This document shows positions 15,050-58,548 of a stretch of DNA of 58,548 bases, in pieces. Source of the stretch: a virus (Duplodnaviria > Heunggongvirae > Uroviricota > Caudoviricetes); the IMG/VR virus record IMGVR_UViG_3300031555_007106; one strand, written 5' to 3'. Position numbers and translations under genes: made by a program. The notes under the pieces are model-generated. The model saw only the letters and a list, made by a program, of their open reading frames with translations. It ran no database searches and was not told the DNA's origin. Each line of letters begins with the position of its first letter. Position 1 is the stretch's first letter.

Positions 15050-15281
15050 CTTTACTATAGTGTAAATTCATACACCCCTAAAACCCAATATATGAGAGTG
15101 TTACAGCACTCCCAGCTTTACTATAGTGTAAATTCATACACCCCTAAATCTAATACATATCTTCGAGAATATTGTTCATTACTTTAGAATAGTGCAAATT
15201 CATACACCCCTAAAGTCCTTCAAAAGAAGATGTTGATATAATCAAACTTTAGAATAGTGTAAATTCATACACCTCTAAAGC
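15050..15281 (-). CRISPR. Mini-array A: 4 repeats, 3 spacers (30/31/31 nt), plus a repeat remnant at ~15030-15047
   Basis: 35-nt repeat, sense GCTTTAGAGGTGTATGAATTTACACTAT(AG/TC)TAAAG, at 15050, 15116, 15182 and 15247. Confidence 0.93.
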
Positions 15282-15441
15282 CTCAAATTCAGTTTTACAG
15301 TGTATGTTACACGTATAATCTCGTACGGACTACTAAGTACGAGGTTTTCTGACCTATAAAGGCCAACCTTTGCAAGAGTGGAACTCCGGCGTTAATAAAC
15401 GTCTTACAGGTCCTTCTCGCTCTAAGGGTGCAAAGCCACCC
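15282..15441 (-). ncRNA. tracrRNA-like element A (Cas12f type), fused to array A
   Basis: ~160-nt sequence conserved in six copies. 5' hairpin GGGTG-GCTTTG-CACCC, anti-repeat near the 3' end, ends ATTTGAG at the first repeat. Confidence 0.82.
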
Positions 15442-15464
15442 CGACTACGACTTTATGCCGCTAT

Positions 15465-15540
15465 TGGTTGGGATAGTGGGATTTGAACCCACAAAATCCT
15501 TATCATAACAACAAAACAAAATTATTATAACAGTATCCCA
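15465..15540 (-). pseudogene. tRNA-like element: intact acceptor stem, T-arm and CCA, with D/anticodon arms replaced by one AT-rich hairpin
   Basis: TGGGATA...GTGGG-TTCAAAT-CCCAC-TATCCCA-A-CCA; 76 nt. Confidence 0.75.
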
Positions 15541-15591
15541 ATATAATTTTTTGTTTATCTGCTAATGTTTTTCATCTTCATACTATATATT

Positions 15592-15713
15592 CTTTTACCT
15601 ATTCAGTATCTATACGGTCTACTATGTATAGAGTTAACCTTTGCAAGAGGATTTTTCAGCGTTTAAATAACGTCTTACGAAAATTGCCTCGCTCTGAGGG
15701 TGCAAAGCCACCC
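15592..15713 (-). ncRNA. Divergent, shortened tracrRNA-like copy with no array
   Basis: Keeps GGGTGGCTTTGCACCC, GAGCGAG, GTAAGACGTT and CTCTTGCAAAGG. Compensatory stem CTATAC/GTATAG. Lacks the anti-repeat. Confidence 0.7.
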
Positions 15714-15771
15714 ATAATTTATTCTACTTTATTATGCTTGCTTTACTACATTTGGAGAGTTATATTGCCCG

Positions 15772-16002
15772 CTTTACTATAGTGTAAATCCATATACCTC
15801 TAAAGCCCCTGAGGATAAACAAATAAGGGACGCATTACTTTAGAATAGTGTAAATTCATACACTTCTAAAGCGAATCCCCGATTTTCCGCTTTGTTATCG
15901 CTCTTTAGAATAGTGTAAATTCATACACCTCTAAAGCTGATGGGTAGTCAGCAATCCAATTGCCATACTTTAGAATAGTGTAAATCCATACGCCTCTAAA
16001 GC
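15772..16002 (-). CRISPR. Mini-array B: 4 repeats, 3 spacers (30/30/31 nt)
   Basis: Repeats at 15772, 15838, 15903 and 15968. Confidence 0.93.
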
Positions 16003-16162
16003 CTCAAATTCAGTTTTACAGTGTATGTTACACGTATAATCTCGTACGGACTACTAAGTACGAGGTTTTCTGACCTATAAAGGCCAACCTTTGCAAGAGT
16101 GGAACTCCGGCGTTAGCAAACGTCTTACGGGTCCTTCTCGCTCTGAGGGTGCAAAGCCACCC
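16003..16162 (-). ncRNA. tracrRNA-like element B
   Basis: Near-identical to element A; abuts the first repeat via ATTTGAG. Confidence 0.82.
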
Positions 16163-16185
16163 CGACTACGGCTTTATGCCGCTAT

Positions 16186-16372
16186 TGGTTGGAACAGCAG
16201 GTAGTAACCCTATATGTTCCAATATAAGAGAATGCTAACCACTCAGGTGAAAAAAAGGTGTGTTATGATACCTTATCAAGACCTGCCAAAGACATTCTCA
16301 TGCGACACCCTATGTGCCGCTTCCAAGCATAAATAGGAGCGTTGGCTACCCAACAGCAAAGTTAAACTATGC
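16186..16372 (-). ncRNA. Unrecognised structured RNA ending in a CCA-tipped minihelix (copy 1 of 3)
   Basis: Homologous to 53891-54066 and 57957-58155, with compensatory stem changes. Confidence 0.65.
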
Positions 16373-16465
16373 GAACTCGTATTAAACTTTGGTTTCAATG
16401 TGATTTCATAAAAAAACAATCACAAGTATTATAATAGTGCAAGCATTACAATACTTTTGTTGCAC

Positions 16466-16530
16466 ATATATAGTATGATAGAAAAAAATGTAAAAAAATA
16501 AACTTTTTCTTTTCATACACACATTTTTCT
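16466..16530 (-). promoter_or_regulatory. Extended promoter shared with the dCas12f gene and array E
   Basis: GTGTGT.....AAAAAGTTTAT-T-rich-TCATACTATAT; also at 21923-21990 (-) and 53736-53800 (+). Confidence 0.7.
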
Positions 16531-16533
16531 GTT

Positions 16534-16908
16534 TTACGATACATCGTCAGAAAGCACATAAGTATTTCCGTCAACTATAACAATTGGAACAGCTGTCGTA
16601 CTCTGTGTGACAGTATTTTCTTCACATACTTCTTCTGAAGTTTCAGTTTCTGTTTCTTTAGCTGATGTTGTTGCGATTTCTTCGCTAATGGTTGTTGATG
16701 TTGAATCAGTCAACAATCCCCCGGATGAAGTAGCATCTTCGTATAACGAGCGTATATAAGGAAAACAAAAAGTAATAATAAGGAAGATACATATTGCAAA
16801 CACAAGCATTGTAATTGCTATTTTGAGAACATCTTTTTGTTCTCCCAGTAGTATACCAAATAACACAACAACTACTGCCAAAACTCCCAAACCAATAAGA
16901 AATATCAT
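16534..16908 (-). CDS. Membrane protein with two N-terminal TM helices and a Thr/Glu-rich tail
   Basis: Hydrophobic segments followed by a low-complexity T/S/E region; RBS present. Confidence 0.7.
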   Translation of the reverse strand: MIFLIGLGVLAVVVVLFGILLGEQKDVLKIAITMLVFAICIFLIITFCFPYIRSLYEDATSSGGLLTDSTSTTISEEIATTSAKETETETSEEVCEENTVTQSTTAVPIVIVDGNTYVLSDDVS

Positions 16909-16919
16909 TTCTTCCTCCT

Positions 16920-18044
16920 TTAAATGGTTGTTGTTATTCCATTTACAGTTATATTGTCATCATCTATATCAACGACAATACACTTTCTTCCACCAACAGT
17001 TGCTACTCTCACTTTATTTGTTCCTGATTTTTTTATAGTAATTGTGACATCATCTATATTTACAACGGTTTTGGTTTCAATTAAATTAGTCGCGGTTAGT
17101 TCATTGTCACCAACGATTTCTTCATAAAGATTTGCAACTTCTTCAATTTTTTCATCCTTTACTCCAACTTTTTCGAGCATAGAACAAAGTTTATCGCCAT
17201 TAATAGTTGCAGGTTCCGCAGAATTTGGCTGCTTAGAAACAGAGTCTTCTATTTTCTCATTAAGCTGTGTAACAATTGTATAATCAAGGTCTTCTCCAAT
17301 CGCATCAGTTAGAATCTGTGCAAAAGCCATTTTCTCACCTTCCGCAGTCATTCTAAAAGAACAACCAAGAACATCTTCTACAATCGAACGATTAGGCTCT
17401 TTAGGTTTAGATGTATAGCAAAGCACCTGATTCACGTCCGGTTCACCATCGGTAAGCACAGGAAAAAGAATAGCGTCTGTAGGTCCTTTTGCAACCAAAC
17501 GGTCACTCTTGGGTCTCTTGCATATCTTATTGCTATCTTTGTCAACCATTAATGAGTCATCACAGTATGTAACCGGACAAATTACAGTAAGCAAGAAATC
17601 ATAATCTGTTGTATTATCCGTCTTTTCATCGTTCTTATCTTTAATAAATAAGGTATAGGTGCAGTGAGCTACAAACACGGTAAAAGCCTGATTATAATTA
17701 ATATTCTCTGTAATTCTGTTTAACAATCTTTCGTTACACTCCGAATCAGATAGTTTACCCTTATATACCTTATATAATACACTCTGAGAACCTGTTTCGT
17801 CATACATAGCCTTAGGAAAAGAATATTCCATAAGGTTCTTTCCAAGTGTTCCGCTTATTCCTTTCTTAAGCGTTTCAAGTATCAATTCCTTATCATCTTC
17901 CGGAATTACCCCAAACAGTTTAACGTCCTTGCTGACAACATTCTTCTTAGCATCAACAAACGCAGAAAGGACATTGTTGATAACAAAAAAGCCACTTTCT
18001 TCGTTAAAATTCTTTCTTAATGATGTTATTTCTTTCTTATTCAT
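16920..18044 (-). CDS. DUF4317 family protein
   Basis: Start MNKKEITSLRK; motifs FPVLTDGEPDVNQVLCY and MTAEGEKMAF resemble clostridial DUF4317 proteins. Start moved to 18044 based on the RBS. Confidence 0.75.
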   Translation of the reverse strand: MNKKEITSLRKNFNEESGFFVINNVLSAFVDAKKNVVSKDVKLFGVIPEDDKELILETLKKGISGTLGKNLMEYSFPKAMYDETGSQSVLYKVYKGKLSDSECNERLLNRITENINYNQAFTVFVAHCTYTLFIKDKNDEKTDNTTDYDFLLTVICPVTYCDDSLMVDKDSNKICKRPKSDRLVAKGPTDAILFPVLTDGEPDVNQVLCYTSKPKEPNRSIVEDVLGCSFRMTAEGEKMAFAQILTDAIGEDLDYTIVTQLNEKIEDSVSKQPNSAEPATINGDKLCSMLEKVGVKDEKIEEVANLYEEIVGDNELTATNLIETKTVVNIDDVTITIKKSGTNKVRVATVGGRKCIVVDIDDDNITVNGITTTI

Positions 18045-18078
18045 ATTTTTCTCCTTTTTCATTATAATATTTTTCACA

Positions 18079-18223
18079 TAGGTAAATTCATACACCCCTA
18101 AAGCATATTTACGGTATAGAATGCTCGGACTGATGCTTTACTATAATGTAAATTCATACACCTCTAAAACACTATATATAGAGAGGAGTTTTACTATAGT
18201 GTAAATTTATACACCTCTAAAGC
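18079..18223 (-). CRISPR. Mini-array C: 2 full repeats and 1 partial, spacers 18 and 31 nt
   Basis: Repeats at 18189 and 18136, partial at 18079-18104 running into the DUF4317 upstream region. Confidence 0.88.
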
Positions 18224-18382
18224 CTCAAATTCAGTTTTACAGTGTATATTACACATATAGTCTCGTACGGACTACTAAGTACGAGGTTTTCTGACCGTTA
18301 TGGTCAACCTTTGCAAGAGTGGAACTCCAGCGTTAGCAAACGTCTTACGGGTCCTTCTCGCTCTGAGGGTGCAAAGCCACCC
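18224..18382 (-). ncRNA. tracrRNA-like element C
   Basis: Conserved element with variant hairpin TGACC-ATAAC-GGTCA. Confidence 0.82.
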
Positions 18383-18497
18383 TTGTCAGGTAAATCTTTT
18401 AATAATGTCACAATATATTTGGAACGAACATGTTCTAATCCTTTTTTAACGGCATCTGCTTTATTTTCAGCGTTTATAGCGTTTTCCTTGCGTATTA

Positions 18498-20531
18498 TCA
18501 GAATATTTCATCGGCAGGTATATAATTTTCATCATATATACCATCATCGTATTCGTTATTGGTTTCGTTTGTATTGGTATCATAAAATACACAAGCATGA
18601 TACCAAGTTCCGTAGCCTTCAGACTGTACTGCATACGAAACGCTAATTACGTTATGCGTTTTACAGAACTCATTTACTTCTTTTTCGAGTTCAGAAGTAT
18701 GTTTATTCTGAAATATTTTAATCTGTTTCATAATAAATCCTTTTGTTTGCTTAAGGTAATATAATGTCACAATGACCACCATAAAATGTGAGTTTGGTGC
18801 CATCTGTAAATCGCAAAATAACGCCTGAATCAGAAATTGCAGCTGTAAAAACAGTTTTACCTTCGATGGCTGCTTCCAAATCAGCAGATTCCTGCATATT
18901 TTTAAGTGCATTTTCAAGAATATCCATAATATTTCCTTTCTTATTCTTCAGGAATCAGAATTGTTTTGCCACATTTGATGTCTGCATATATCTGATTACC
19001 TTCTTCTCTTGTTACTTCATAATTGCGTTCAATACACTGTTTTGTTCCGAGATATGTTCGATATTTTGTTCTATGAACCGTTGTTATGAAGTAATACTCA
19101 ATTTTGTCTTCAGGAATATAAATTGCTTGAATTTGATTTGCTGAGCAGTTGTCACGCCTTTTGATGCAATTTTTGTTTTGATATTTGTAATAGTTGTTTT
19201 GTATCAAGATAATACAGTTTTTGAATTTGCTACTTTTTCGTCAGCTATTATGTATCCCACATCGTATATCAGCTTACTTGTTTCTGCTGAACCTATGTAT
19301 GTAGTAACTTTTGTGATAGTTATACTCTCTTTATCTTTTATTTCGCTGAATTGAGTGTTAGATAGATATAATCGTATTCGATATTTCTTTTCATCATTCG
19401 TAACAGTTTCAAGAATAGCAATATAATGATTCTTATTCTTGTAAACTTCTTCTACCGAGCATTCAATATCTTCGTATATATCTTCAAATACAGGTTCTCC
19501 TTTAAAATACTGTAAAAAAACAAAACCGCCAAATAAAAACAGAGTTACAACTGTTAAAATAGAAGCAATTTTTATAACATCCATTTTTAATTAACCTCTA
19601 TGTGTAAGTCATTATCAAGGCCATAATCCGCTATTAACACGCTTATATACTTTTATAAGAATAGAAATAGCTGCTGATATTACCGCGAGCGTAAACAACA
19701 TTAAACCCGCTTCGCTGCCTGAAATATCTGTATTAAAAATCACACTCAACGCATTAGCAACAATTATAGAAAAGCTGTTGAATGCCCACACACATCCCGC
19801 AATTATGAGAGCCAATGTTGCTAATACCACAAAAAATATAGCTAAAATAGTGCCACCCATATTACATTCTCCTTTTAAAATACTCTGTCATTTTCCGTTA
19901 ATTACCTTTTTCTACTTCCTCTAAGTAGTATTCGTATCCATTATGTTCAATCACCTTTACAGGTTCGTCGCTGCGAACATATGTATAACCATTGCGTTCT
20001 AATGTATCGGGATGGTCAATAAAACTCAAATAACCTGCATTATAACAAATATATACACCTGTTATGAATGCTACAAAGAGAACTGTGAATATAATAGCTT
20101 TTATCAATCCGTTTCCTTCAATATTCCAACTACGCCAATAAAGCACCGCCAATATAAATAAAACAGCAACGACAATAAAAATACCTAAAGCTACAAAAGT
20201 TCCTAACATAATACTTTCCTTTCTTCACCCCGGATTTCTCCGGGGATTCGTTTTGTTTTTCTTAATCTTTTCCGCAATTACAATTACTAAACATACAAAT
20301 TGCAATAACTACAGTTGATACAGCAGCTAATACAAAAAATGTGATTGAGACAGGGATATTTTCCATTTTGTAAAATCCTCCGCCAAGAACAGAAAATACA
20401 AACACTCCTAAAACAGATAACCAAAATACAGTTTCTTCAATTTCACATTTTTCCTTTTTCTGTTTACACTCAACGTAATTATTAATCGCAACTTCTTTTA
20501 CTTTCTTCTTATTCTTTTTCTTACCTTTCAT
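18498..20531 (-). CDS. Cluster of 7 small ORFs, several membrane-anchored (18498-~18733, 18751-18927, 18941-19207, 19204-19584, 19615-19860, 19898-20209, 20262-20531)
   Basis: ORF track plus a 58-aa ORF I read at 18751-18927. The last four have clear TM segments. Confidence 0.7.
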
Positions 20532-20545
20532 TTTTATTAACCTCT

Positions 20546-21898: not shown

Positions 21899-21996
21899 AA
21901 TAGACCTCCTAAATTTAAATTCTATATATAGTATGAAAGAAAAAACGTAAAAAAAATAAACTTTTTTTATTCTCACACACGTATTTTTAAAAAGCG

Positions 21997-22025
21997 TTGA
22001 CTTAAGGAAGATTTTGAGGTATACT
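21997..22025 (+). promoter_or_regulatory. Sigma70-type promoter divergent from cas12f
   Basis: TTGACT-17 bp-TATACT. Confidence 0.7.
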
Positions 22026-22031
22026 ATTATA

Positions 22032-22100
22032 TAGTGATTGCGTTACAGAAACCTGCGAGGCCTGTGACCGGAGGAGAACCTGCGGGGTCTCCCCTTTTTT
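22032..22100 (+). ncRNA. Candidate ~70-nt two-hairpin small RNA
   Basis: Follows the promoter. Stems GTTACAG/CTGTGAC and GGAGA/TCTCC, both capped by CCTGCG(A/G)GG; ends in TTTTTT. Confidence 0.5.
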
Positions 22101-22109
22101 ATAAAAAAA

Positions 22110-22141
22110 AGAAAAAGAGCCCACGCGAGGCTCTTTTTTTA
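22110..22141. terminator. Bidirectional intrinsic terminator
   Basis: AAAAAGAGCC-CACGCGA-GGCTCTTTTTTT. Confidence 0.75.
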
Positions 22142-22159
22142 TCTTTTGTTATCACAGTT

Positions 22160-26517: not shown

Positions 26518-29162
26518 TTATTCAATCTTCTCTATTTCCCTGTAGTTATCTTCGGTTAATAATCCGCAAAAAGCTATGTAACCTTGTTTATTATAAATTT
26601 TACATAAGTTACATTTATACTCTTCGCAAAACTTTTTGTATACCTTAAGAAGTTCCTTTTTGGTGTCACATATTACTCCGAAAGCAACAGCATAAGCAGA
26701 TTGCATTGGTTCATAACATTCAATCCTGTATTTTCCTGTGGTTATGCAAACCTTATATCGTTCATCACATTCGAGACAAATGGCATACATACCGTTTTTG
26801 TCTATTCTATAACCTTTATCAAGGTTCACATATCCGCATGAAGTACACTTCAATCATATCACATCCTTTTCTTTTTTAGTCAAGAGGATTGCCAAATGTT
26901 TTGATGTAAAGGTTTCTGTAAATTTCCAGACATGTAGATTTAAAAAGCCAATTTTCCACTCTAAATTCCGGATATTTCTTTAATGCTTCCGTGCAGATTT
27001 CTCTATTTTTAGGAGTGTCAATATAACAGCCTTTTTCAAGACCATCTATGTCATTAATAAATTTTACTCCATCCTTTTCTGCTTGCCTACAAGCTCCAAA
27101 ATCATCTTTAAAGCCGTAGTCGTGTTCGTTAACCAATTCATCTATACACTCGACTATTTCGGCACCCTCTATGATTATATCGCTGTTATATACAGCGCAT
27201 ACAACGTAACCATTAACAACTTCTTCTTTTGTGTAGTTTCCTTTCTTCATGAGCTTCGTAATTTCTTCTTCATTCATCGGTTTTTCTATATTTTGAGTCT
27301 TTTCATCATTTTGTATAAATTTTGCTGTATGTTCATTTATAGCCTTCTGAATTTCTTCAAATCCAGTCTGTGTTAAATGAGGTATTTCCTTTATTTCAGA
27401 ATAAGTCATTCTGCAAAGGTCACGAAGAGTATTGATACCGGCTCTCTTTAAGCAATTAAAGGTCTTAACCTTAAGGTTGAGAGAATCAATTTCAATAGAT
27501 TTAAGGTAATCATCGAAATCCACATCAGAAATAATCTGAAAAGCGGGCTGATGTTCGATAATATCACAACAGGCCTTTAACACACCCATTCGAACCTCGT
27601 CATCTTTATAAAGTCTGCTCTGCTCTCTCAATTCATCAATGAGCATACCCTTTTCGATAAAATAAGCGGTATCATCCCAAGGCCCGTCTTCACTTTCAAT
27701 GAATTCTGTACACTCATCTTGAACATTTTGATTTACCATAAGACGCTTTATTCGCTCGACCTCATCGTGGCGATTCATCTTTTTGTTAATTTCCATCATC
27801 TGTTTACACAACTGATAGTATTCGCAATATTTACAAGTCATTTTATTCTCCTTTCACCCTTCAAATAAAATCTCAAAAGGATGACGTCCCTTATTTTTTT
27901 CCTTATAAAGATAGGCTCTTATCTTTTCAAGCTGCTTTTGAGCTTCAATACGCTTTTTATCTTCGCCTACCATTCGAGCGTCGAAATAAAGAACATCGTA
28001 ATTGCCGTTTAAAAGAGAGTCTACAATAGTGCGAAAGAAAAAACTGTCAATTTCAGCTTTTCTGAAAACTTCTTTAATATCTCCATATACCCCTACAGCA
28101 TATATTGGTTCTGTGCCGTCAAGAGAGGTTTTGAAGACTTCCGGAGTCTTTTCGTATATACGTATCATTCTTTTCGTTCTGTCAAGCATAATATTCTCCT
28201 TTATTCCTGTTTTATTGCATCGAATGAATGTTCTAAAAGTGTTTCTACAGCAGACTTACTATATCCGGTAAGAGATTTTAAATAATCTTCTAATCCATCA
28301 TAAACTGCGAGTTCGCTTTCGCAGCCAAGGCAGCGCTGAATAGCCTTAATTGCAATTTTCTTCAGCATATCATTCTGCACATACAATTTTTCAATAGAAT
28401 AAATTGGTTTTTCAGGCTTTTCTTTGTTTTCAAACACCGCGATATCGTATTCCTTTTTGCTGAGATACAATGGAAGCTGAGTTTCAGCGTGAACGAGACA
28501 ATACATTTCAGTATCTTTACATCCTTCAAAATAAAACTTTTCTTCCTTCAGAATGAAAATATCGCCATCACAATATAGCAAGCTTCCGTCTTCGTCACGA
28601 CGAAGGTCATAGTATTCACGTTCTCCGTCTTCGTTATAATAGTCGATATAACCGCCATAATGAAGATTTGTTATACCTGCATCATATAATGCTTTAAAGC
28701 TTACTCCAACCTTTCTGTTTTCCATACCATTTTCCTCACTTTCTCTTAACTTTATTGATTCTGATGTCCGTTGGAACAGTTTTGATATGCTTAAACTGTC
28801 TTTTACTTTCGGTTGTGTACGAATTGCTTTTACGTGCAATTGCTGTTGTACAATAACTACATCTCATCATAATTTTATTTTCCTTTCTTAAAGTTTTCGG
28901 CCGAAATCTCACTCAATCGTATAATAGCCGTTTCAATTTCTTCTGTTGTAGGATTAATCCAGCTATCTACGATTTCGTCGGGGGATTCGAGAGATAAAAA
29001 CATTTTACCGTTTTCATTGGTAACAAAAAGAAAACACGCCTTATCTGCATCATCACACACAGTTTTTGCGACAACATCCATTGTTTCAGCAAGACGTTCC
29101 TTTTCTTTTTCGAAATAATCTCTTAACTTTTCTGGTTCAATACAAATCTTAATACCTTTCAT
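26518..29162 (-). CDS. Module of 5 ORFs (26518-26853, 26876-27841, 27854-28189, 28201-~28727, 28875-29162)
   Basis: Packed ORFs with RBSs. Confidence 0.75.
26876..27841 (-). CDS. Mosaic protein containing an RNA polymerase alpha C-terminal-domain-like module
   Basis: IDSLNLKVKTFNCLKRAGINTLRDLCRMTYSEIKEIPHL matches the alpha-CTD pattern (L.lsvRs.NCLKraGI.tv.dL). Confidence 0.75.
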   Translation of the reverse strand: MTCKYCEYYQLCKQMMEINKKMNRHDEVERIKRLMVNQNVQDECTEFIESEDGPWDDTAYFIEKGMLIDELREQSRLYKDDEVRMGVLKACCDIIEHQPAFQIISDVDFDDYLKSIEIDSLNLKVKTFNCLKRAGINTLRDLCRMTYSEIKEIPHLTQTGFEEIQKAINEHTAKFIQNDEKTQNIEKPMNEEEITKLMKKGNYTKEEVVNGYVVCAVYNSDIIIEGAEIVECIDELVNEHDYGFKDDFGACRQAEKDGVKFINDIDGLEKGCYIDTPKNREICTEALKKYPEFRVENWLFKSTCLEIYRNLYIKTFGNPLD

Positions 29163-33623: not shown

Positions 33624-36600
33624 TTATTTTTCGCAAAAATTCAACGCCTGACCGCAAACACGGCAGTAATTTGCACTACTGTCTTCCACTGAATAACAAC
33701 GAGGACATACACCTTTATATGTATCGCCTGTGTAATGCGAGTGATGTTTATACACTCGCATAGCAGTCTGCTTTTCAATAGCCGTTTTAATGTTTTCTGA
33801 GGCGTTTTCCGCTTCCAAAGTTTTGTTAAACAACAATTCCTCAAGTATCCTGTTTATTACTGGGAAAATGATACGCTGTTCTTCTTCTCCATATTGTTCG
33901 CGGATTTCCTCGATAATATCGCTAATCTTGTTGTTGAGGCTGGAGACCAAAACAACTTCATTTGCCTTCAAATTGCATACTCCTTTCACTTAACGTAGCC
34001 GATATTTCTCTTATGCTCTCGAACGAAAATCATCGTTATCGGGATTTTCAATGGCATTTGCCATACGCAATGCTGCTTTTCCAAGATAACGAAGTGTATC
34101 AGCATTTCCGCAAGCTTCAAGCCAGTTAAATATGTCGTTTGCTGAAAGTTCAACCTTAACTTCTGCCTGTAATTCAACTTGTTTGCGGATACATTGACTT
34201 CTCGTTTCAAGCTTATTGACAGTTGTTGCAAAACATACCTTTTCATCATTTTTTTCCATTGGCTTTTCTTTTACCTCTTTCTGTGTATCGTTATTATCTT
34301 TACACTTTTCTTTAATCTTTATCGCGTGTTCCATAATAGCTTTCTTCGGGATGATATGTTTACAATGCTCATCGAAATATACAGTCCATGGAGACCCTTC
34401 CCCGTTTGTCATTTCTATCAACTGTTCGCAATTAAGTTTATTAAGAAATTTAAGAATAACATCTACTATTGAGATTGTAAGAGGGCTGAGTTCCTGTGTG
34501 TATGGTTCAATAAGATATAAATCGCACAGCCCATACGTCATATATTCATAATAAACATCAGGAACAACAGGGCCTAATCCCCAAGCCTCGAAATCTTCTT
34601 CGAAAAGAAAATCTCCGAAAACTTGAATAAGATACAAATATCTTTGTAATCTCCAAGAGTTTATTGGAGTTTTTTCTTGATTACACTTATGAATGATATA
34701 TTTAGCTATTTTAAGAGCCATTCTGTTCCCCTTTCATCTCATAGGGTATTTTAAGAGTGATGCGATACTTTCTTCCCATCATAATAACCTGTGTATCGCC
34801 AATTCTTTCTGTTAAATATCCCATAGCCATAGCATAGCCATCAATCCAACCGGATAGATATTTTCTGTGTCCGTCATCAAAAGCCATTTTTTTATTAATT
34901 GTAACCCCAAGATTGAGGTATTCGCACCATCTTCCTATGTAACAGCCCAGCTTAACCTCATCTTCAGTATTTTCGCCAATATAATTCAATATATCAGCCG
35001 GATTAAGAAGCATATACTGGTCATGCTTATGCAGTTCAAGCGTTACATCAATCATCTTTGACATTATCGTACCCTTCTCTTTCTTCGTTTTTAAAACTTA
35101 CACCTCTGCATTTTCCGTTCTCGTCCAGATGAATGCTATCTCTTTCACAATATCCATAATCATTATATTCGCAATCATCACATTTGCAAAATATATTCAC
35201 ATTAGTCATCTTCGCCATATTTACCATCCCTATATAATGCGCATTGTACTTCATAAACGTGCAGTAAGCTGTTATAAGCAAAGTGATTGAAGAGTTCAAT
35301 CATATCCTTATTACTCGTCATTCCCTTCATAGCCTTTGCAAATAAAGGGGTATGAGTGCCTGTATAAACAGCAAGCTGATTTATCGCCATAGCAAAGTTT
35401 TCTGCGGTCTCTGTAAAAAACAGAGTTTCGTCATTCAGGATAAATAAATACTTATGCTTATCAGACGGCACAGATACACCATTATCTATGAGATAGCTCG
35501 ACAGGAACTCGTGAGGCTTAATCTCTGTATTTTCTGATGAACCATAAGCGGCTAAGCCGTCTTTGATAAGGTTAGCAAGGGTTTCATTAGCCATTGTTCT
35601 TCTCTCTTTCCAGTACGTTGTTTGCTTCTTTATAGGTTAAGAATACGGTATCACCTATATTTTTTTCTTCAAAGGTGCAATTGCAGTCCCACGAAGAATT
35701 CAGCATTTTGGCGTTATACCATATTTCCGTCTCACTCTCGCTTTGACGGTAATTAACACTTGTAACCTTAAAAGCCTTAAATTCCCCTTCTCCTGCAAAT
35801 TCTCTTACATAGACATCATCACCTGCGTTAAGAGAAGGGAATCTCTTTGCCGGCCCTTCTGCCCCGAATTTCTTAACAAGCTCGTCAATTACAATATGTG
35901 TTTCAATTTTATCATACGCATAATGCTCATAATCGCCTGTGTCATAAACGACTTCGACAAGCTTATCTTCTAATTCTTCTACAAATGCTTTTACAGCTTC
36001 AGATTTTGCCATTTTAAGCTGTCGCATTGCTTCGCTGCAACGCATCATATAGGAATTTTTCTCGGCAACGGCTACATCAAATCCTATTTGGAAATTTTCG
36101 AGTTTTTTCTGCCAACGTTCGATTTCCACTGTTTGACCGTTAATAGCATCAAGAATTTCGCCGATTATTTCATGTTTATAGGAATCTGCAGACGCTTCTT
36201 TTCTGAATTGTTCAAGCTTTTCAAGCAGCTTATTTACTTTTTCAGTTAATTTTTCTGTTTCTCTTATGCTCATTATTCATCCTTCTTTCTTACAAAACCC
36301 ACGCCATTTCCCACGAGATATTCAGCTACTAAGTCATACATTTCATGTTCTTCAAAAAGGTTAATCGTAAATTTTGTTACAGGCTCTCCATCGGAATTAC
36401 AAACAGTCTGCTCAATAACGCACAGAGCAAGAAGTTCTGATAATTTCTCCTTCGTTTCTTCAGGAGATAGCTGAACAACTTCACTTTTAAAGTGTTTACA
36501 TACGCTTTGCGATACTGTGTGGTTATTTCGACGTTTATCGTCGCACACTATACGGTGGCTGCACTGCTTGCATGAAGGCTTGCTCTGTTTCTGTACTTCC

Positions 36601-47953: not shown

Positions 47954-48080
47954 AACATTTTACCTTTCTTATTATAATAGTAGCTTATTGTCTCCGTTCG
48001 TCAGAAAAATAAGCTCATTATAAGTATGTGAGAAAAAACATAAAACAAAAAAACTCCCGGTTAGGGGAGTTTAATATATT

Positions 48081-48460: not shown

Positions 48461-48472
48461 TATTTCTCCTTC

Positions 48473-50014
48473 TTAAGAAATTATTTTTTCGTAAAATGCA
48501 CAACGGGATTTACCTTCTTTTTTAGCTTCATAAAGAGCACAGTCACTACTATACATCAAAGTTTCAATGTCGTGTTCGTAACCATCTTCAAGAGAAGCCA
48601 TTGCTAAACCTGCACTCATGGTCATAGCTGTATATCCTGTTTTATTTTTGTATTTTTCATTAAATTCATCAATGAGGCTCTGAGCTTCTTTTTCAAGCTC
48701 ATCTTTGTTTATATTTCTTTTTATAACAACAAGGAATTCATCTCCTCCAAGCCTTACTGAAAAATCTTCTTTAAAATGTTTTTTCAGCATCTTAGCAGTT
48801 TCTACAAGGACCTCATCTCCGACAGCGTGGCCTAAACTATCATTAATCTTTTTGAAGTTATCCAAATCGATTGCAATCATAGATAAGTACGGAGTTTTTC
48901 TTATTTGTGCAATATATGAAGAAAGACTGCGTCTGTTATTGAGTTTTGTAAGAAAATCTGTATTAGCATATTCAAGGGATTGTTTTTGTGAAAGTTTTTC
49001 AGCGGTAACATCATTAAATATAGTTACTTTTCCAATAACTTCCCCAAAATCATCTTTTACCTCTTCTCTTGAAAAACTGAGTATACACGGCAACCCATTT
49101 TTCTCTGTCTCAAAGATACCGGTCTTTTCTTTATTCCCAATAAACCGTTTTTTCCACTCTCTGCAATCTTTCCATCTGTATTTTCTTATTTCAGGGAAAT
49201 ATTCAGTAAGGGATGAATTATAACTTATAAGTTTTTCGTTCTTATCTTCTATCATAATACCGAAGGGTATGCTTTTTACAACAACGTTAAGCTCGTTTAT
49301 TATCTTTCGTAAATCTGCTATATCTCTTGCGACTCCGCAAGTGCCAAACAAACGACCGTCTATATCGTATAATGGGGTTTTATAAGTCTTAAATCTCTTC
49401 ATACCGTTTTTAGTCTTAACTTTTTCCTTGAACAGACGAGTTTTTCCGGCTTTTATAATTTCATCTTCCGATTCCAGACATACATAATTTCCTTGTTTAT
49501 ACTCTTCTTCAGGAATATCCCAAATATAATAATGACCTTTTTTATAAACCTGCTCTTTGGTTTTCCCTACAACATCACAAAAAGATAGGTTCGTCATGAG
49601 ATGTGCTCCATTCAAATCTTTAAACCAAATTAAATCAGGAACGCTGTCCGCAGCTGTTTCAAGGCAGATTTTATACCTTCTCATATCAAAATTGGATTTA
49701 ACAAGTTTTACAAGCCTTAAAAAATAATTTTTTAGTAATTTTTCCTTTGCAGGGGAGCAATCGGGGATACACCACAATTCAACATCATCAATAAGGTCGT
49801 TGGGAATTTCTTTTCCATCTGTAATAATTGCACACATACCTTTTTCTTTTCTCTGAAAATATAATTCGGCATTACCGTATACTGTAATTCTATCAGGGCT
49901 TTCAGAGTCTCCGAAATTCAATTCGCAGTCGGTGGGCATAGGAAGGCAGCTAAATAATTCTTCTCCGTTAAACTCGCATCCGATTAACCTTACATCAATA
50001 ATACAACTATACAT
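48473..50014 (-). CDS. PAS-domain diguanylate cyclase
   Basis: PAS-like LIWFKDLNG; DFLTKLNNR, IDLDNFKKIND, RLGGDEF, SAG, ALYEAKKEGK. Confidence 0.92.
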   Translation of the reverse strand: MYSCIIDVRLIGCEFNGEELFSCLPMPTDCELNFGDSESPDRITVYGNAELYFQRKEKGMCAIITDGKEIPNDLIDDVELWCIPDCSPAKEKLLKNYFLRLVKLVKSNFDMRRYKICLETAADSVPDLIWFKDLNGAHLMTNLSFCDVVGKTKEQVYKKGHYYIWDIPEEEYKQGNYVCLESEDEIIKAGKTRLFKEKVKTKNGMKRFKTYKTPLYDIDGRLFGTCGVARDIADLRKIINELNVVVKSIPFGIMIEDKNEKLISYNSSLTEYFPEIRKYRWKDCREWKKRFIGNKEKTGIFETEKNGLPCILSFSREEVKDDFGEVIGKVTIFNDVTAEKLSQKQSLEYANTDFLTKLNNRRSLSSYIAQIRKTPYLSMIAIDLDNFKKINDSLGHAVGDEVLVETAKMLKKHFKEDFSVRLGGDEFLVVIKRNINKDELEKEAQSLIDEFNEKYKNKTGYTAMTMSAGLAMASLEDGYEHDIETLMYSSDCALYEAKKEGKSRCAFYEKIIS

Positions 50015-50123
50015 ACGCTGCTCCTTAAAATTTTAGCTTTAACAATAGTATGTTATTTTTTTTATAAAACAAAAAAAGCTCGTCGAAACGAGCTTTTGTT
50101 ATTAATATTCTTAATAAGTAATA

Positions 50124-51068: not shown

Positions 51069-51088
51069 TTTTTATTTCTCCTTTTCTT

Positions 51089-51181
51089 TCATCTGGCTTT
51101 TGTAGCCCATAAGTAAGCGACAATTCCTGTCGCCAGTCCGATTGCAACCAATACAATCTTTAAAATTGTCATTCCGTCCAT
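51089..51181 (-). CDS. 30-aa single-TM peptide MDGMTILKIVLVAIGLATGIVAYLWATKAR
   Basis: Not in the ORF track. Strong AGAAAGGAGG RBS; hydrophobic core and basic C-terminus. Confidence 0.7.
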   Translation of the reverse strand: MDGMTILKIVLVAIGLATGIVAYLWATKAR

Positions 51182-51344
51182 TGTATTTCCTCCTTTCTGA
51201 CATTTCTTTAATAATAGTTTATTGCTTACGATGACAAAAGAATCTTTGTCCTTTATTGTCAACGTAGGAATATATAATGTATAAGTATTCCTGAGATTAT
51301 AGCAATTGCTACCAACTCAATTTTTAAAATTACTACTCTGCTCA

Positions 51345-52997: not shown

Positions 52998-53082
52998 TCA
53001 GCAAACCTCTTTCATAACATTCTATTTATAGTATGAAAGAATAAATTGTTTTTTAAGGAATGCTTGTTTAATGCGGGTATCA

Positions 53083-53173
53083 AAAAGTGAAAAAAGTGAA
53101 AATTCACATTTTATTCACTACGTCAGTTTGCAAAAGTGAATATTTACATTAATAAAAGTGAAAATTCACATTT
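53083..53173. repeat. AAAAGTGAA(AATTCACATT) repeat cluster
   Basis: AAAAGTGAA at 53083, 53092, 53132 and 53154; imperfect palindrome GTGAA-AA-TTCAC. Confidence 0.7.
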
Positions 53174-53345
53174 TTTTACTCTTTTAACAACATACGGACG
53201 GGAAACCTCGGTTATTTATAGTTGAGAAGTTCACACATAGCACATATCACATTTCAAAATTTAACATTTTATTCTATCATACTACAATTAAGAGGTGATA
53301 TAATTTTTGTCGAATTCCTCAAAAGGCATTTAATCATCTTGAAAC

Positions 53346-53506
53346 GGGTGGCTTTGCACCCTCAGAGCGAGAAGGACCTGTAAGACGTTTGCTAACGCTG
53401 GAGCTCCACTCTTGCAAAGGTTGACTTTTTGTAAGTCAGAAAACCTCGTACTTAGTAGTCCGTACGAGACTATATGTGTAATATACACTGTAAAACTGAA
53501 TTTGAG
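53346..53506 (+). ncRNA. tracrRNA-like element D
   Basis: Conserved element; a CATACTA promoter core lies at 53278-53284. Confidence 0.82.
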
Positions 53507-53718
53507 GCTTTAGAGGTGTATGAATTTACACTATAGTAAAGTATTGCCATGGTCTATGGGAAAGTAATAACGGCTTTAGAGGTGTATGAATTTACACTAT
53601 AGTAAAGTGGCCAGACCGTTGGATTCGCTGCTTTAGAGGTGTATGAATTTACATTATAGTAAAGATACGAATTCGTACATATAGCTTTAGAGGTGTATGG
53701 ATTTACACCATAGTAAAG
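53507..53718 (+). CRISPR. Mini-array D: 4 repeats, spacers 31/22/19 nt
   Basis: Repeats at 53507, 53573, 53630 and 53684. Confidence 0.93.
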
Positions 53719-53890
53719 TAAAGAGTAAAGCATATAAAAAATCGTGTGTGAGAATGAAAAAAGTTTATAATTTTTTTGTTTTTTTCTATCATACTAAATA
53801 TGTAGTCAGTTATGGTCTGCTTGTACTTTTTGTGCAGTGGATGATAAATTGAATAAAAATACATTTTATTCCAAGATTTAAGACGAGTGA

Positions 53891-54066
53891 GCATAGTTTA
53901 AATCTTGCGTTGGGTCAAGCCAACACTCCTATTTATGCTTGGAAGTGATACATAGGGTATCGCACGAGAATGTCTTTGGCAGAATTTTTACCTCCTTTAG
54001 CGATTCTGAGTGGTTAGCATTCTCTTATACTGGAACATATAGGGTCACTACCTGTTGTTTCATCCA
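53891..54066 (+). ncRNA. Unrecognised structured RNA ending in a CCA-tipped minihelix (copy 2)
   Basis: Homologous to 16186-16372, with covarying stems. Confidence 0.65.
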
Positions 54067-54089
54067 ATAGCGGTATAAAGCCGTAATCG

Positions 54090-54250
54090 GGGTGGCTTTG
54101 CACCCTCAGAGCGAGAAGGACCTGTAAGACGTTTGCTAACGCCGGAGTTCCACTCTTGCAAAGGTTGACTTTTTGTAAGTCAGAAAACCTCGTACTTAGT
54201 AGTCCGTACGAGACTATATGTGTAACACACACTAAAAACTGCATTTTGAG
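54090..54250 (+). ncRNA. tracrRNA-like element E
   Basis: Conserved element; ends TTTTGAG. Confidence 0.82.
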
Positions 54251-54546
54251 GCTTTAGGGGTGTATGAATTTACACTATAGCAAAGCGATTCGTCCTTTCT
54301 TTGTAAGGCGGGTAAGCTTAGGGGTGTATGAATTTACACTATAGTAAAGCGCTCCGCACTTTCCGCAGACGAGCAAGCCTGCTTTAGAGGTGTATGAATT
54401 TACACTATAGTAAAGCTTCAGGACAAAAGAGCCCTTCAGGCCTCGTGCTTTAGAGGTGTATGAATTTACACTATAGCAAAGCACACATATTGATAATCTG
54501 CAATAAATGCAGCTTTAGGGGTGTATGAATTTACACTATAGTAAAG
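54251..54546 (+). CRISPR. Mini-array E: 5 repeats, spacers 30/31/31/30 nt
   Basis: Repeats at 54251, 54316, 54381, 54447 and 54512. Confidence 0.95.
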
Positions 54547-54606
54547 TAGCATGCATAAATCCACTATAATAAAGGAGCAAATTCTTTATTGTAATCTGCA
54601 AGACAC

Positions 54607-55150
54607 GAGAATAAACAGGGTAATTACCTGTTATTCTCACCAACAACAAATCAAAACAGAATAAAGCTGATGGAGTATCCCTGAGCAATCTTTATAGATT
54701 GAACGCAACAGCTTCAAATAAAATGCGTTGGTGAGGCGTGACCGTAGCGAAGCAGGGCTGAACATGGACCCCGAGGTTATTGCGCCGCAGCATGCGATAT
54801 CCCCGGTCAGGAGGACGTACCTTGCCTCCTTAAACATTGGGTAGGGCTGGAACGCTGGGGGCAAAACCCGGGATGCTTGCATGGAAGACAGGACAGCGTT
54901 TGTCGCAATATCAAGAGATATTGGTCATGCAGGTTGCTGCGGCGATTTAAATTTTCATCAAATTTTCATAAATTTTTTCTTTCTTATCTCAAATCTGGAC
55001 TTGGGGCTGGGGGTAGTATACCCTTTTTCAGTGCCAAGTCCGGGTGAGGGATAACTCTCGCGTTGCGGTCGACTTATCATGACCAGTTGACGCCGTTGGC
55101 TTCCGCGTTGCGCTGACCATTCAGGCTCTAGAGGTGGCAATGCCTGCTCC
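54607..55150. other. GC-rich non-coding region with extensive nested complementarity (candidate large ncRNA)
   Basis: Stems 54607-54638, 54783-91/54936-44, 54809-14/54825-30, 54851-57/54894-900, 54906-23 and 54997-55004/55034-41; no credible ORF. Confidence 0.45.
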
Positions 55151-55546
55151 GTTTAGCTTAAAAGTTGAGTGCAAAGCACCAAAATCACCTCCTGAAAGCC
55201 AAAAATCACCTTCAAAACCTTAAAGAAAACCAAAAATCGGTCGTACAAAAATCAAGTAGGTCGGAAAACGGCAGTCCCGAAAATCGACCTCAACGGTGGA
55301 CGGGTCTTCCTCAGTAACGGTGGATGAGCTTTCCGCAAGTCCCTGACGGGTCCTCGACTGATATTCACAAGGTCGCTGAAGCGATAGCTCGTATATAAGG
55401 ACTCTCTTAAGAAAGAAAAAGAAAAGAGAGTAAGAGAGAAATCAAAAAGGGATAGGTATGTCAACTTATACTTTATAATAATAGAGATAAAGAATATAAG
55501 AGATAAGAGAGAGTAGGATAATAGAGAGAAAGAAAGGAAGGTAGTC

Positions 55547-57883
55547 TTGAACAACACAACGAAAAAAACAGCGGCAACCCTGATGAAAGCTTTTTCATTC
55601 GGGGTTTTATTATTTTTGGTATTCCTTATACCTACACTAATAAAGAATAATGGTTTATTTATAACAGACGGAGATTATCCATTCCAAAGCATCCCGTTTA
55701 CATATCACATAAGAGACTCGGTTTTCACAGGAAATGTTGTTTGGAATCACGCATCCGGATTTGGAGGACAGTTCTTATCTAATTATGCTTATTACAATTT
55801 GTGCAGTCCATTTACATTAATATATCTGATACTGCCAAGAAACTGGATTGTTTATGCTATGCCTTATATGGAAGCTGTAAAGTATGGTGTTGGTACAATG
55901 TTGGCCGCTCATTATATAAACAGATATGTAAGAAGTGATATGTATTCTATTGTAGGTGGTCTCACATATATGTTTTCCTCGTTCTCTGCTTACAATCTCG
56001 TATTTCATTTCTCTGACGCTATTGCTCTGTTTCCCTTACTTCTTATATCTATTGATGAACTGTGTATGAATAACAGAAGATGCGTTTTTGCATTAAGCTG
56101 TGCATTATTAGCGTACACCAACTATTATTTCTTTTTCGGGCAAGCAGTCTTTTTGGTGATATATTTCTTTACAAGGTATCTGAGTAAAGATAAAAGGTAT
56201 TTCTTCAAAAAACTCTGTGTTGTTGCCCTTGAGGCGGTTATAGGCGTTATGTTAGCAGCTCCCCTCCTGTTTCCTGTGCTTATTACTCTTTTAGATAGTG
56301 CGAAAGCCACCGCCACAATCAACATCTCAGATATGTTTATTTACAGCAATATCAATTATTATTTAAAGATAATACAGGGTGCGTTTATGATTCCTGACCA
56401 GTTCGGATGTATTTCTTACTTCCCGGCAGTAGAAAGTCAATATCCTTTCGGAACTGTTATTGGTTCGGTAGCTTCATACATACCTTTTTTTTCTGTTGCA
56501 GGCGTATTATCTTATATATACGTGAGGAGAGGAAGTCGTTTTAGTGCTCTGCTTACAATCTGCGGAATAATGGCACTTATTCCTATAGGTAATCAACTAT
56601 TCTCGGGACTCAATACTTCCTTTTATGCCAGATGGTATTATATGCCTATACTTATAGCGTCTCTTGTTTCTGTCAAAGCTCTTCAAGACGGAATAAGCTT
56701 TAATTACGGTATAGGAGTATGTTCCTTGTTTGTTGCAGCAATTGCAATAAAGCTGAATTATGGGTACTCAGCGGATGAAATAAAGGCTTATGTTTCTGAA
56801 ACCATGGAAATAACTTTTAATAATACATCTGAGATACTGAATCAGATTTATATTCTTATTACAATTTTCGGTTTACTTTCTTTGATGCTTGTTACTGCGT
56901 TAAGAAAGAAAAAGATATTCAATGTGGTATTTGGAGCTGTATTTTTTGTTAATGTTCTCTCAAGTTACGGTATTACTTATTACACTGCAGTAACTGTAGG
57001 TCCCGAAAAAGACATATATGAAAAGAATATGGCTATTGAAGAATATTCAGAGGATTTCAGTACAACAGACAGAGTACTGTTCACAGCAAATGAGACTTCT
57101 AATCTCAGTTTGTACTACGGATTAAGTTCTATTGATTATTTTAATTCTCTTACAGATGCAGGATTTCAACGTTTCCTTACAGAAAATGGTTTAGTAGAAA
57201 ATACCGGAGTCAACACTCCGATTGATGAAGAGAGTCTTCCTGTCTGTGATATAACTTCGGTTAAGTATTTCTATACATCGCCAAAAGATGAAGAAAATTC
57301 TGTTTACTTATCGCCTGTGTACGAATATGAGATTGTAGGGAAATTAGGAAGAATGGATATCAGAGAAAATCCTAACTACGTTCCTATGGGGCTTACCTAT
57401 GACTACATGATTACTTACGAAGATTTTTCAAAGATAGAAAATAAAGAAGATAGATGGAAAGTGTATATGAGTTATCTGGTCGTAGACAATCCGGACGATT
57501 TTGTTGATGTACTCAGCCTTTATAAGGGAGATATAAATACGGAGGATTATAAAGATGCAGTTTTGGAACGTCGCCAAAGCTGTGCGTATTACTCTGAATA
57601 CACAAAAGATGGTCTTGTATCTCATATAGACGTTGACGCGCCTGAATTGGTATTTTTCTCTGTTTCTTATAATGATAGCTGGAGAGCTTACGTTGACGGC
57701 AAGGAGCAACAAGTGTATGAAGTTAACAATGGACTTATCGGAGTGAAGGTACCTGAAGGCGACCACGAAATACGACTTGTTTATTCAGTGAAAGGCTTTA
57801 CAGTAGGATGCGTTGCTTCTTTTGCAGGAGTTGTAATTCTTATTGTTGTTAAAATCGTATGTGAGAATAAAAAAGAGCGTTAA
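55547..57883 (+). CDS. YfhO-family multi-pass membrane protein (GT-C-type glycosyltransferase)
   Basis: TTG start; GDYPFQSIPF, YYNLCSPF, many TM helices, and the C-terminal FFSVSYNDSWRAYVDGK..NNGLIGVKVPEGDHEIRLVY typical of YfhO. Confidence 0.85.
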   Translation: MNNTTKKTAATLMKAFSFGVLLFLVFLIPTLIKNNGLFITDGDYPFQSIPFTYHIRDSVFTGNVVWNHASGFGGQFLSNYAYYNLCSPFTLIYLILPRNWIVYAMPYMEAVKYGVGTMLAAHYINRYVRSDMYSIVGGLTYMFSSFSAYNLVFHFSDAIALFPLLLISIDELCMNNRRCVFALSCALLAYTNYYFFFGQAVFLVIYFFTRYLSKDKRYFFKKLCVVALEAVIGVMLAAPLLFPVLITLLDSAKATATINISDMFIYSNINYYLKIIQGAFMIPDQFGCISYFPAVESQYPFGTVIGSVASYIPFFSVAGVLSYIYVRRGSRFSALLTICGIMALIPIGNQLFSGLNTSFYARWYYMPILIASLVSVKALQDGISFNYGIGVCSLFVAAIAIKLNYGYSADEIKAYVSETMEITFNNTSEILNQIYILITIFGLLSLMLVTALRKKKIFNVVFGAVFFVNVLSSYGITYYTAVTVGPEKDIYEKNMAIEEYSEDFSTTDRVLFTANETSNLSLYYGLSSIDYFNSLTDAGFQRFLTENGLVENTGVNTPIDEESLPVCDITSVKYFYTSPKDEENSVYLSPVYEYEIVGKLGRMDIRENPNYVPMGLTYDYMITYEDFSKIENKEDRWKVYMSYLVVDNPDDFVDVLSLYKGDINTEDYKDAVLERRQSCAYYSEYTKDGLVSHIDVDAPELVFFSVSYNDSWRAYVDGKEQQVYEVNNGLIGVKVPEGDHEIRLVYSVKGFTVGCVASFAGVVILIVVKIVCENKKER

Positions 57884-57956
57884 GTTTTGCGATTTATTCT
57901 TTCATACTATATATGTAAGAGTTAAAATCTTGCATTGTCCAAAACACTTGCGAGTT

Positions 57957-58155
57957 TGCATAGCTGTGTTTTGGTTTCAGATGTTTTTTCTTTTCATCTG
58001 ATACATCCCATATGCTTGGAAGTGGCACATAGGGTGTCGCATGAGAATGTCTTTGGCAGGTCTTGATAAGGTATCATAACACACCTTTTTCCGCCTGAGT
58101 GGTTAGCATTCTTTTATACTGGAACATATAGGGTCACTACCTGTTATTTCAACCA
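57957..58155 (+). ncRNA. Unrecognised structured RNA ending in a CCA-tipped minihelix (copy 3)
   Basis: Homologous to the other two copies; a CATACTATAT promoter core lies at 57903. Confidence 0.62.
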
Positions 58156-58178
58156 ATAGCGGCATAAAGCCGTAGTCG

Positions 58179-58339
58179 GGGTGGCTTTGCACCCTCAGAG
58201 CGAGAAGGACCTGTAAGACGTTTGCTAACGCCGGAGTTCCACTCTTGCAAAGGTTGGCTTTTTGTAAGTCAGAAAACCTCGTACTTAGTAGTCCGTACGA
58301 GACTATATGTGTAACATACACTGTAAAACTGAATTTGAG
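58179..58339 (+). ncRNA. tracrRNA-like element F
   Basis: Conserved element ending ATTTGAG. Confidence 0.82.
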
Positions 58340-58548
58340 GCTTTAGAGGTGTATGAATTTACACTATAGTAAAGCTCGGTAGGCACAGTGCTAACTGCGC
58401 CCAAGGCTTTAGGGGTGTATGAATTTACACTATGGTAAAGCTATCAGCAGTTTGTATACACTTTAGAGATGTATGGATTTACACTATAGTAAAGCCTCTT
58501 ATATTTTTTCAAGACAAAATGAAGCTTTAGAGGTGTATGAATTTACAC
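58340..58548 (+). CRISPR. Mini-array F, truncated by the window end: at least 4 repeats, spacers 31/19/29 nt
   Basis: Repeats at 58340, 58406, 58460 and 58524 (partial). Confidence 0.92.

Follow-up and report, generated by a model that had tools for sequence, protein, structure and literature searches.

Nuclease-dead relatives of Cas12 and TnpB, such as TldR and Cas12m, have already been described, and the natural examples known so far are either single-target regulators (TldR and the dCas12f-sigmaE systems) or binders served by one array (Cas12m). In addition, inactivated branches of Cas12f have been reported (PMC10691335), and a separate cluster of putative dead Cas12f (dCas12f) proteins near clustered regularly interspaced short palindromic repeat (CRISPR) arrays has been mentioned (PMC13472631). 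The present analysis concerns a 58,548-nt stretch of viral DNA assigned to Caudoviricetes (IMG/VR record IMGVR_UViG_3300031555_007106; the whole stretch is called the window below), which carries one gene for a Cas12f-like protein with an altered RuvC site and six dispersed units, in each of which a scaffold RNA is joined to a short CRISPR array. This element probably encodes an autonomous, multiplexed RNA-guided DNA binder that is derived from type V-F CRISPR-Cas12f and aimed at host or rival DNA. In the literature searched, no description was found of dispersed multi-copy units of trans-activating CRISPR RNA (tracrRNA) and array serving one altered Cas12f in large phages, which agrees with an earlier sequence-only reading of this DNA, made without database searches, that knew of no such layout.

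The RuvC-altered Cas12f effector

The effector gene (P0002; Table 1) is the only Cas12f-like gene in the window. Its open reading frame (ORF) starts at an ATG behind a good ribosome-binding site (RBS) and encodes a protein with the Pfam Cas12f1-like TNB domain, the zinc ribbon of which is complete. Residues 4-444 were aligned by phmmer to AsCas12f structures (E 1e-76), and the AlphaFold model of the protein (predicted local distance difference test, pLDDT, 86.5) matched AsCas12f with template modelling (TM) scores of 0.71-0.77 and a Foldseek E value of 1e-37. Judged by sequence and predicted structure, the effector is a genuine full-length AsCas12f relative, and its homologues at 42-67% identity are all full length as well. 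Third codon positions take seven of the nine tallied variants of the effector gene in other samples (among those listed), implying that purifying selection maintains the gene and that it is not in decay. The neighbouring gene, at ~20210-20529 (minus strand), encodes a small membrane protein rich in lysine, which is shared with L004 (positions 47-295), the closest relative (protein identity 67%), and was not found in more distant clade members.

The catalytic site of the effector differs from that of AsCas12f at two positions. In the phmmer column of RuvC-I, where structure 8J12 reads IMGIDLG and 7WJU reads IMGIALG (the Ala of which we take to be an engineered catalytic mutation), the effector has His, and the Arg of the TSQ-R-C motif, which we take to be important for Cas12f cleavage (cf. 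Un1Cas12f1 R490), is replaced by Trp. Both replacements were present in all 18 aligned clade members and again in 11 of the 11 clade loci of the locus table, the motif survey covering 25 aligned homologues and 127 tabulated loci. The clade comprises more than 45 homologues from gut and rumen, and its members at 42-67% identity all have GVHI(G/A) in RuvC-I and LRKWC in place of TSQRC. From the two replaced catalytic residues we infer that the effector is nuclease-dead; with regard to the earlier claim of a nuclease-dead Cas12f, the real Cas12f with an altered RuvC site stands as observed, and the loss of cutting would follow from the replacements.

A point to the contrary is that the RuvC-II Glu is invariant and the acidic RuvC-III residue mostly retained; the site may still be catalytic, and because these residues are kept an altered activity, for example RNA processing, is conceivable. 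The RuvC site would then be altered and not dead, with a His-Glu-Asp pocket catalysing the processing of precursor CRISPR RNA (pre-crRNA), nicking or cleavage of single-stranded DNA, and the system would interfere enzymatically. The invariance of the RuvC-I His alongside that Glu, the conservation of adjacent residues, and the view that many TnpB groups with replaced catalytic residues are probably still nucleases (Altae-Tran et al. 2023, PMC10691335) would all suit such an enzyme. However, the NADxNAxxNI context of RuvC-III is gone in all members of this clade (the His clade), and two more lineages independently swap the same Asp for Asn or Phe/Thr. Besides, of the four residues on which cleavage by Cas12f is known to depend, two are substituted here (for the Arg, such a role is presumed), and we consider enzymatic interference unlikely.

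Guide units and their scaffold RNA

A repeat search and a fuzzy scan agreed on one 35-nt repeat in six arrays, the consensus of which begins GCTTTAGAGG and ends TATAGTAAAG. Altogether, the arrays contain 22 full and 2 partial repeats and 18 different spacers of 18-31 nt, and every array is joined directly 3' of a conserved scaffold of about 160 nt, the six copies of which are mutually 89-97% identical. The units form two clusters, A-C on the minus strand and D-F on the plus strand. In all these respects (six arrays of one repeat, 18 different spacers, two clusters, a conserved element of ~160 nt before each array, and a single Cas12f-like gene in the window), the sequence-only reading was confirmed. 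Spacers turn over, as other samples hold different spacers between the same repeats. A seventh, truncated scaffold copy has neither anti-repeat nor array, and its stems are preserved through compensatory changes. Unit C forms the 5' untranslated region of a DUF4317 gene (16920-18044, minus strand).

A hidden Markov model of the scaffold found homologues adjoining relatives of the effector gene, and the scaffold stems covary. In about 24 lineages, the tetramer of the hairpin-1 loop is complementary to the last four bases of the repeat, in seven pair classes that were read from the sequences with the repeat ends checked de novo (loop with repeat end: CTTT with AAAG, CTTA with TAAG, CTTG with CAAG, CTCG with CGAG, CTCT with AGAG, TTCG with CGAA, and TTCA with TGAA). 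The last conserved stem is immediately followed by an anti-repeat able to pair with the 3' half of the repeat over 11-12 bp with a single bulge; the mean duplex energy was -13.6 kcal/mol with the repeat of the same lineage versus -10.9 kcal/mol with the repeats of other lineages, and the own repeat was better than the median in 14 of 17 lineages. In AsCas12f, a short repeat/anti-repeat pseudoknot is essential for targeting (PMC11246509). Because the covariation of hairpin-1 loop and repeat end matches this pseudoknot, and an anti-repeat is present in addition, the ~160-nt scaffold is, on comparative grounds, a true tracrRNA, which bears out the earlier suggestion that it is the tracrRNA of a Cas12f. 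Since repeat 1 follows the scaffold without a gap, the first guide in every unit would be a natural single-guide RNA. No Rfam family was found for the scaffold, for the leader that precedes some of its copies or for the GC-rich gap after array E, both described below.

Three copies of a 41-nt promoter variant that includes the TCATACTA box lie in the window, one each before the effector gene, unit B and unit E, and core promoter boxes also lie upstream of units D and F (at ~57902 for F). Scaffolds B and E are preceded by a conserved leader about 230 nt long, and scaffold F by a short form of it; the leader recurs in L004 at 4283-4379 and 5682-5777. The 3' end of this leader has a CCAACCA motif followed by a small hairpin, resembling the 3' end of the tRNA-Asn call upstream of unit A; a tRNA-like element was considered and rejected, since folding shows no cloverleaf. 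Unit A is flanked by tRNA calls on both sides, and in L004 three units are interleaved with nine tRNAs, which suggests that RNase P and RNase Z help release guide RNAs in this tRNA-flanked sub-lineage.

Every repeat (e.g., 53509-53537) also holds a sigma-70-like pair (TTTAGA, 17 nt, TATAGT; 9 of 12 positions match), which is probably incidental because the repeats of other lineages are without it and such transcripts would miss the repeat handle. Between array E and the YfhO gene, a stretch of about 1 kb (54560-55545) has no convincing ORF and a GC content of 44% versus 35.5% for the window; it gave no credible Rfam match, had no homologue in any fetched locus, and may be a large non-coding RNA.

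Table 1. Positions of the effector gene, guide units and associated features in the window
Feature	Position	Strand	Remarks
tRNA-Gly(CCC)	14950..15024	-	25 nt after array A
Unit A array	15050..15281	-	4 repeats, 3 spacers
Unit A scaffold (tracrRNA)	15282..15441	-	
tRNA-Asn call	15465..15540	-	ARAGORN only, not confirmed by Rfam; 23 nt before scaffold A
Orphan truncated scaffold (7th copy)	15610..15715	-	without anti-repeat, without array
Unit B array	15772..16002	-	4 repeats, 3 spacers
Unit B scaffold	16003..16162	-	
Leader before scaffold B	16163..16420	-	shared with units E, F and L004
Promoter box of unit B	16466..16506	-	41-nt variant
Unit C array	18070..18223	-	3 repeats (last truncated), 2 spacers; runs into RBS of DUF4317 gene
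Unit C scaffold	18224..18382	-	
dCas12f gene (P0002), 450 aa	20549..21898	-	RuvC-I GVHIG; TSQRC motif replaced by LRKWC; RuvC-II Glu kept
Promoter box of dCas12f gene	21924..21964	-	41-nt variant
Promoter-like site before unit D	53261..53288	+	TCATACTA box
Unit D scaffold	53346..53506	+	
Unit D array	53507..53718	+	4 repeats, 3 spacers
Promoter box of unit E	53761..53801	+	41-nt variant
Leader before scaffold E	53860..54089	+	
Unit E scaffold	54090..54250	+	
Unit E array	54251..54546	+	5 repeats, 4 spacers
Short leader before scaffold F	58095..58178	+	
Unit F scaffold	58179..58339	+	
Unit F array	58340..58548	+	4 repeats (last cut by window end), 3 spacers

Relatives, targets and the surrounding element

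The active relatives of the effector, in which the GxDxG motif is intact, come mostly from gut Oscillospiraceae and Lachnospiraceae and carry, immediately behind the gene, a single tracrRNA joined to a single array. Since they already possess it, the tracrRNA-array fusion is ancestral, and what is new is the number and dispersal of the units, not the fusion itself. Of 74 loci that retain the RuvC-I Asp, none had two or more scaffold hits within 10 kb, as against 9 of 11 His loci and 5 of 8 Asn loci. In a maximum-likelihood tree, the His clade forms one branch (support 100/100), and within the active sister clade the Asn group (GVNLG) and the Phe/Thr group each branch off separately with strong support. 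As the three groups branch separately, inactivation occurred at least two or three times, and multiplied and dispersed units are present in at least two separately inactivated lineages. Four Asn-clade phages of 92-177 kb, complete by CheckV, carry 10, 11, 9 and 7 scaffolds on one strand and exactly one effector gene each, and Cas1 was not found in any of the four. Similarly, in a His-clade contig (G004), one effector gene is accompanied by two clusters of scaffolds separated by about 20 kb. The proposal of the sequence-only reading that one gene serves many dispersed tracr-array units is supported by this layout, which is conserved and is seen again in lineages that were inactivated separately. 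Across ten loci of the His clade, no conserved protein neighbour was found in the 7 kb flanking the gene on each side, and neither a sigma factor nor another obvious partner was present. Besides, four further Cas12f relatives (L100, L099, L027 and L107) have the RuvC-I Asp changed to Asn or Lys, L100 having two scaffold copies, and inactivation seems frequent in this family.

As to expression, a single 233-nt contig in a gut metatranscriptome is exactly scaffold B plus repeat 1, in a variant 96-97% identical, and covers nothing else of the 7.1-kb stretch and no coding gene, which could be a sign of abundant scaffold RNA.

Several results weigh against a system aimed at host or rival DNA. Searches of the spacers against metagenomes and the rest of this DNA, which the sequence-only reading had proposed, yielded no spacer target. 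With blastn-short, the 18 spacers gave chance-level matches only against the 58-kb window and 146 loci; in distant mode, no protospacer of arrays D and E was found in the INPHARED phages; exact 22-mers of spacers E2, F1 and E3 had no match in IMG/VR; and neither the 22-mer of spacer E2 nor the repeat core was found in JGI metagenome contigs, so that this collection appears to be without the arrays of this element. The arrays of relatives, compared with their own metagenome-assembled genomes (MAGs), showed scaffold and gene homology only. Among 401 plus 164 (one family) Oscillospirales genomes, no convincing protospacer was found for arrays A, B, D and E. The best near-match was that of spacer E2 to the start of a phosphoglucomutase-like gene (27 of 31 bases); two further matches of 26/31 lay in unrelated contexts, and the three near-matches had no common protospacer-adjacent motif (PAM). 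Moreover, the RNA evidence is one low-depth contig from one run, with DNA carry-over possible, and the negative result for cas genes covers the window plus 10 kb, so that cas genes may lie elsewhere on the element.

The genes cas1, cas2 and cas4 are adaptation genes and are present in many V-F loci. Cas1 and Cas4 were absent from Pfam scans of 20 window ORFs, which included all of at least ~225 aa (shorter ORFs, in the size range of Cas2 and small Cas4, lay outside the scan), and cas1, cas2 and cas4 were not found in the 10 kb past the window end on a JGI contig. The earlier statement that the window has no cas1, cas2 or cas4 holds for Cas1 and Cas4 among the scanned ORFs, Cas2-size ORFs being outside its reach. 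The lack of a self-match, the spacer GC content of 23-65% and the differences between samples point to spacers that derive from foreign DNA and turn over without a local adaptation module.

A different use of the guides would be self-regulation, in which they bind the genome of the element itself, by full or seed-only matches, and time gene expression or replication. TldR and dCas12f-sigmaE operate with short guide matches of 14-16 nt (PMC13472631), and among the 16 spacers of G550, a complete 145-kb analogous phage, one matches perfectly over 16 PAM-proximal nt at a site 1.2 kb before the dCas12f gene of that phage. This match was rejected as probable chance, since it lies inside an ORF, not in a promoter, and has an E value of ~0.01 after correction for 16 spacers. 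In the 58-kb window, which covers about a third of the element, there is no match above chance, spacers vary between samples, and several have a GC content of 55-65% versus 35.5% for the element, all of which makes self-regulation highly improbable. The idea that the element targets its own promoters, raised in the sequence-only reading, was likewise not upheld in the window or in G550.

Alternatively, the system might serve counter-defence, the scaffold-array RNAs loading into or soaking up a type V-F Cas12f of the host and the dead protein, which by analogy should dimerise as Cas12f does, poisoning host dimers or sequestering host crRNAs. Active sister Cas12f proteins with homologous tracrRNAs and similar repeats exist in gut Oscillospiraceae and Lachnospiraceae, the likely host group; a relative has an AcrVA2-like gene near its locus; and two preprints report that phages encode single-guide RNAs subverting Cas9 (bioRxiv 10.64898/2026.06.01.729453, 10.64898/2026.06.03.729762). 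However, a decoy would require neither a set of 18 distinct spacers that turn over nor a co-evolving effector of its own, and the loop/repeat covariation holds inside each element lineage. In addition, the arrays fetched beside Cas1 in MAGs carrying relatives have unrelated 33-nt repeats ending ATTGAAAT, and the repeat of the window is missing from the JGI metagenome contigs. Hijacking of a host system is, in our judgement, distinctly unlikely. An RNA anti-CRISPR, i.e., a viral guide decoy without a cognate effector, was also rejected, as the element encodes a cognate, co-evolving effector and the Cas1-side repeats of the MAGs are unrelated.

The element was found in animal gut and faecal metagenomes of about 14 studies and is a large phage or phage-plasmid. 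According to Pfam, window proteins include NrdD, a DNA methylase, a GGDEF protein and YfhO; an actin-like segregation gene lies immediately past the window end on a 45-kb JGI contig that extends beyond the window; and the contigs of relatives are phage-like, carrying ERF, PIF1 and SSB in addition to an AcrVA2-like gene. No near phage relative of the window was found in INPHARED, and Pfam scanning of its ORFs revealed no sigma-factor domain. At 53080-53175, there are three or four copies of an iteron-like motif close to AAAGTGAAAATTCACAT; gene orientation and GC skew change sign exactly there, unit D begins just after, and the site is a candidate replication origin. Other genes on the minus strand encode a protein of 321 aa containing an RNA polymerase alpha C-terminal domain (26876-27841; Pfam E 2e-16), which may modulate host transcription, a SocA/Panacea antitoxin-domain protein (34011-34721) and a PAS-GGDEF diguanylate cyclase (48473-50014).

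Proposed mechanism and comparison with known systems

In the mechanism proposed here for a multiplexed DNA binder, one RuvC-altered Cas12f would be made from the same special promoter type as several guide units, and at least six dispersed transcription units would each yield a tracrRNA linked in cis to repeat 1 and to two to four further repeat-spacer modules. The first guide of a unit would act as a single-guide RNA and later crRNAs would pair with scaffolds in trans; the 5' hairpin loop of the scaffold would pair with the last four repeat bases as a short repeat/anti-repeat pseudoknot, and the 3' anti-repeat with the 3' half of the repeat, as in AsCas12f. As we infer it, the loaded protein would bind matching DNA outside the element (host chromosome, rival phages or plasmids) and block transcription or replication without cutting. 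More tentatively, we suggest that gut phages and phage-plasmids may have repeatedly turned host-type Cas12f into a multiplex form of CRISPR interference, in which a cutting-deficient protein with 6-11 dispersed, separately promoted cassettes, some of them bracketed by tRNAs, silences changing host or rival genes during infection or carriage.

If this is true, mobile elements build multiplexed, re-programmable versions of dead Cas12 with many guide cassettes. The multiplication of guide cassettes accompanies nuclease loss in at least two independent lineages, which would imply a common selective logic, be it dosage, timing or tracrRNA:crRNA stoichiometry. It would also provide a practical lead, as the predicted binder is compact (450 aa) and has a natural single-guide design, with one sub-lineage showing what may be natural tRNA-flanked guide release. 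Once targets are found, it can be asked what large gut phages silence in their hosts.

Compared with known systems, the effector shares protein family and fold with the AsCas12f subgroup of type V-F (PDB 8J12, 7WJU, 8DZJ; 34% identity in structural alignment). As in AsCas12f, a long tracrRNA combines a short repeat/anti-repeat pseudoknot with a bulged long anti-repeat, and the crRNAs have the repeat before the spacer; as in the active gut relatives, the tracrRNA is fused upstream of the array. Unlike AsCas12f, the effector has His for the RuvC-I Asp and Trp for the presumably catalytic Arg, and the tracr-array unit is multiplied (at least six copies, and 7-11 in the analogous clade), dispersed over tens of kilobases and provided with its own promoters. 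The system also sits on a large phage-like element, and adaptation genes were not found among the ORFs scanned.

By analogy, the closest functional counterpart is Cas12m (type V-M). To our knowledge, Cas12m needs no tracrRNA, and we know of no published example that is a phage-borne multi-unit system. It belongs to a different Cas12 branch and matches the fold of the effector only with TM scores of 0.49-0.51 and 10-13% identity. This small Cas12 is cited as silencing targets by binding without DNA cutting (PMC10691335).

The dCas12f-sigmaE systems (Hoffmann et al., Nature 2026, PMC13472631; PDB 9N9C) likewise use a naturally inactivated Cas12f, with which the putative guided DNA binding of the window effector would be shared. 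However, those proteins, a flavobacterial group, are of ~365 aa, C-terminally truncated and 22-26% identical to the full-length protein of the window, and each is coupled to an rpoE gene and employs a single guide RNA, with no tracrRNA or array, whereas the window has tracrRNAs and arrays and its effector has neither a sigma factor nor another conserved partner.

The position of unit A and the L004 units between tRNA genes resembles engineered polycistronic tRNA-gRNA arrays, with release by RNase P and RNase Z possible; unlike these, the arrangement is natural and seen only in the sub-lineage of the window and L004, its processing is conjectural, and one of the two tRNA calls comes from ARAGORN only. 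Finally, TldR and the omega-RNA arrays of Sigma-TnpB also represent nuclease-dead TnpB or Cas12f derivatives that act as RNA-guided regulators, and whole omega-RNAs have been found duplicated into arrays to reach several sites (Altae-Tran et al., PMC10691335). Those are single scaffold-guide RNAs placed in tandem beside the gene and directed at fixed targets, whereas the units of the window are dispersed, bear arrays and carry spacers that turn over.

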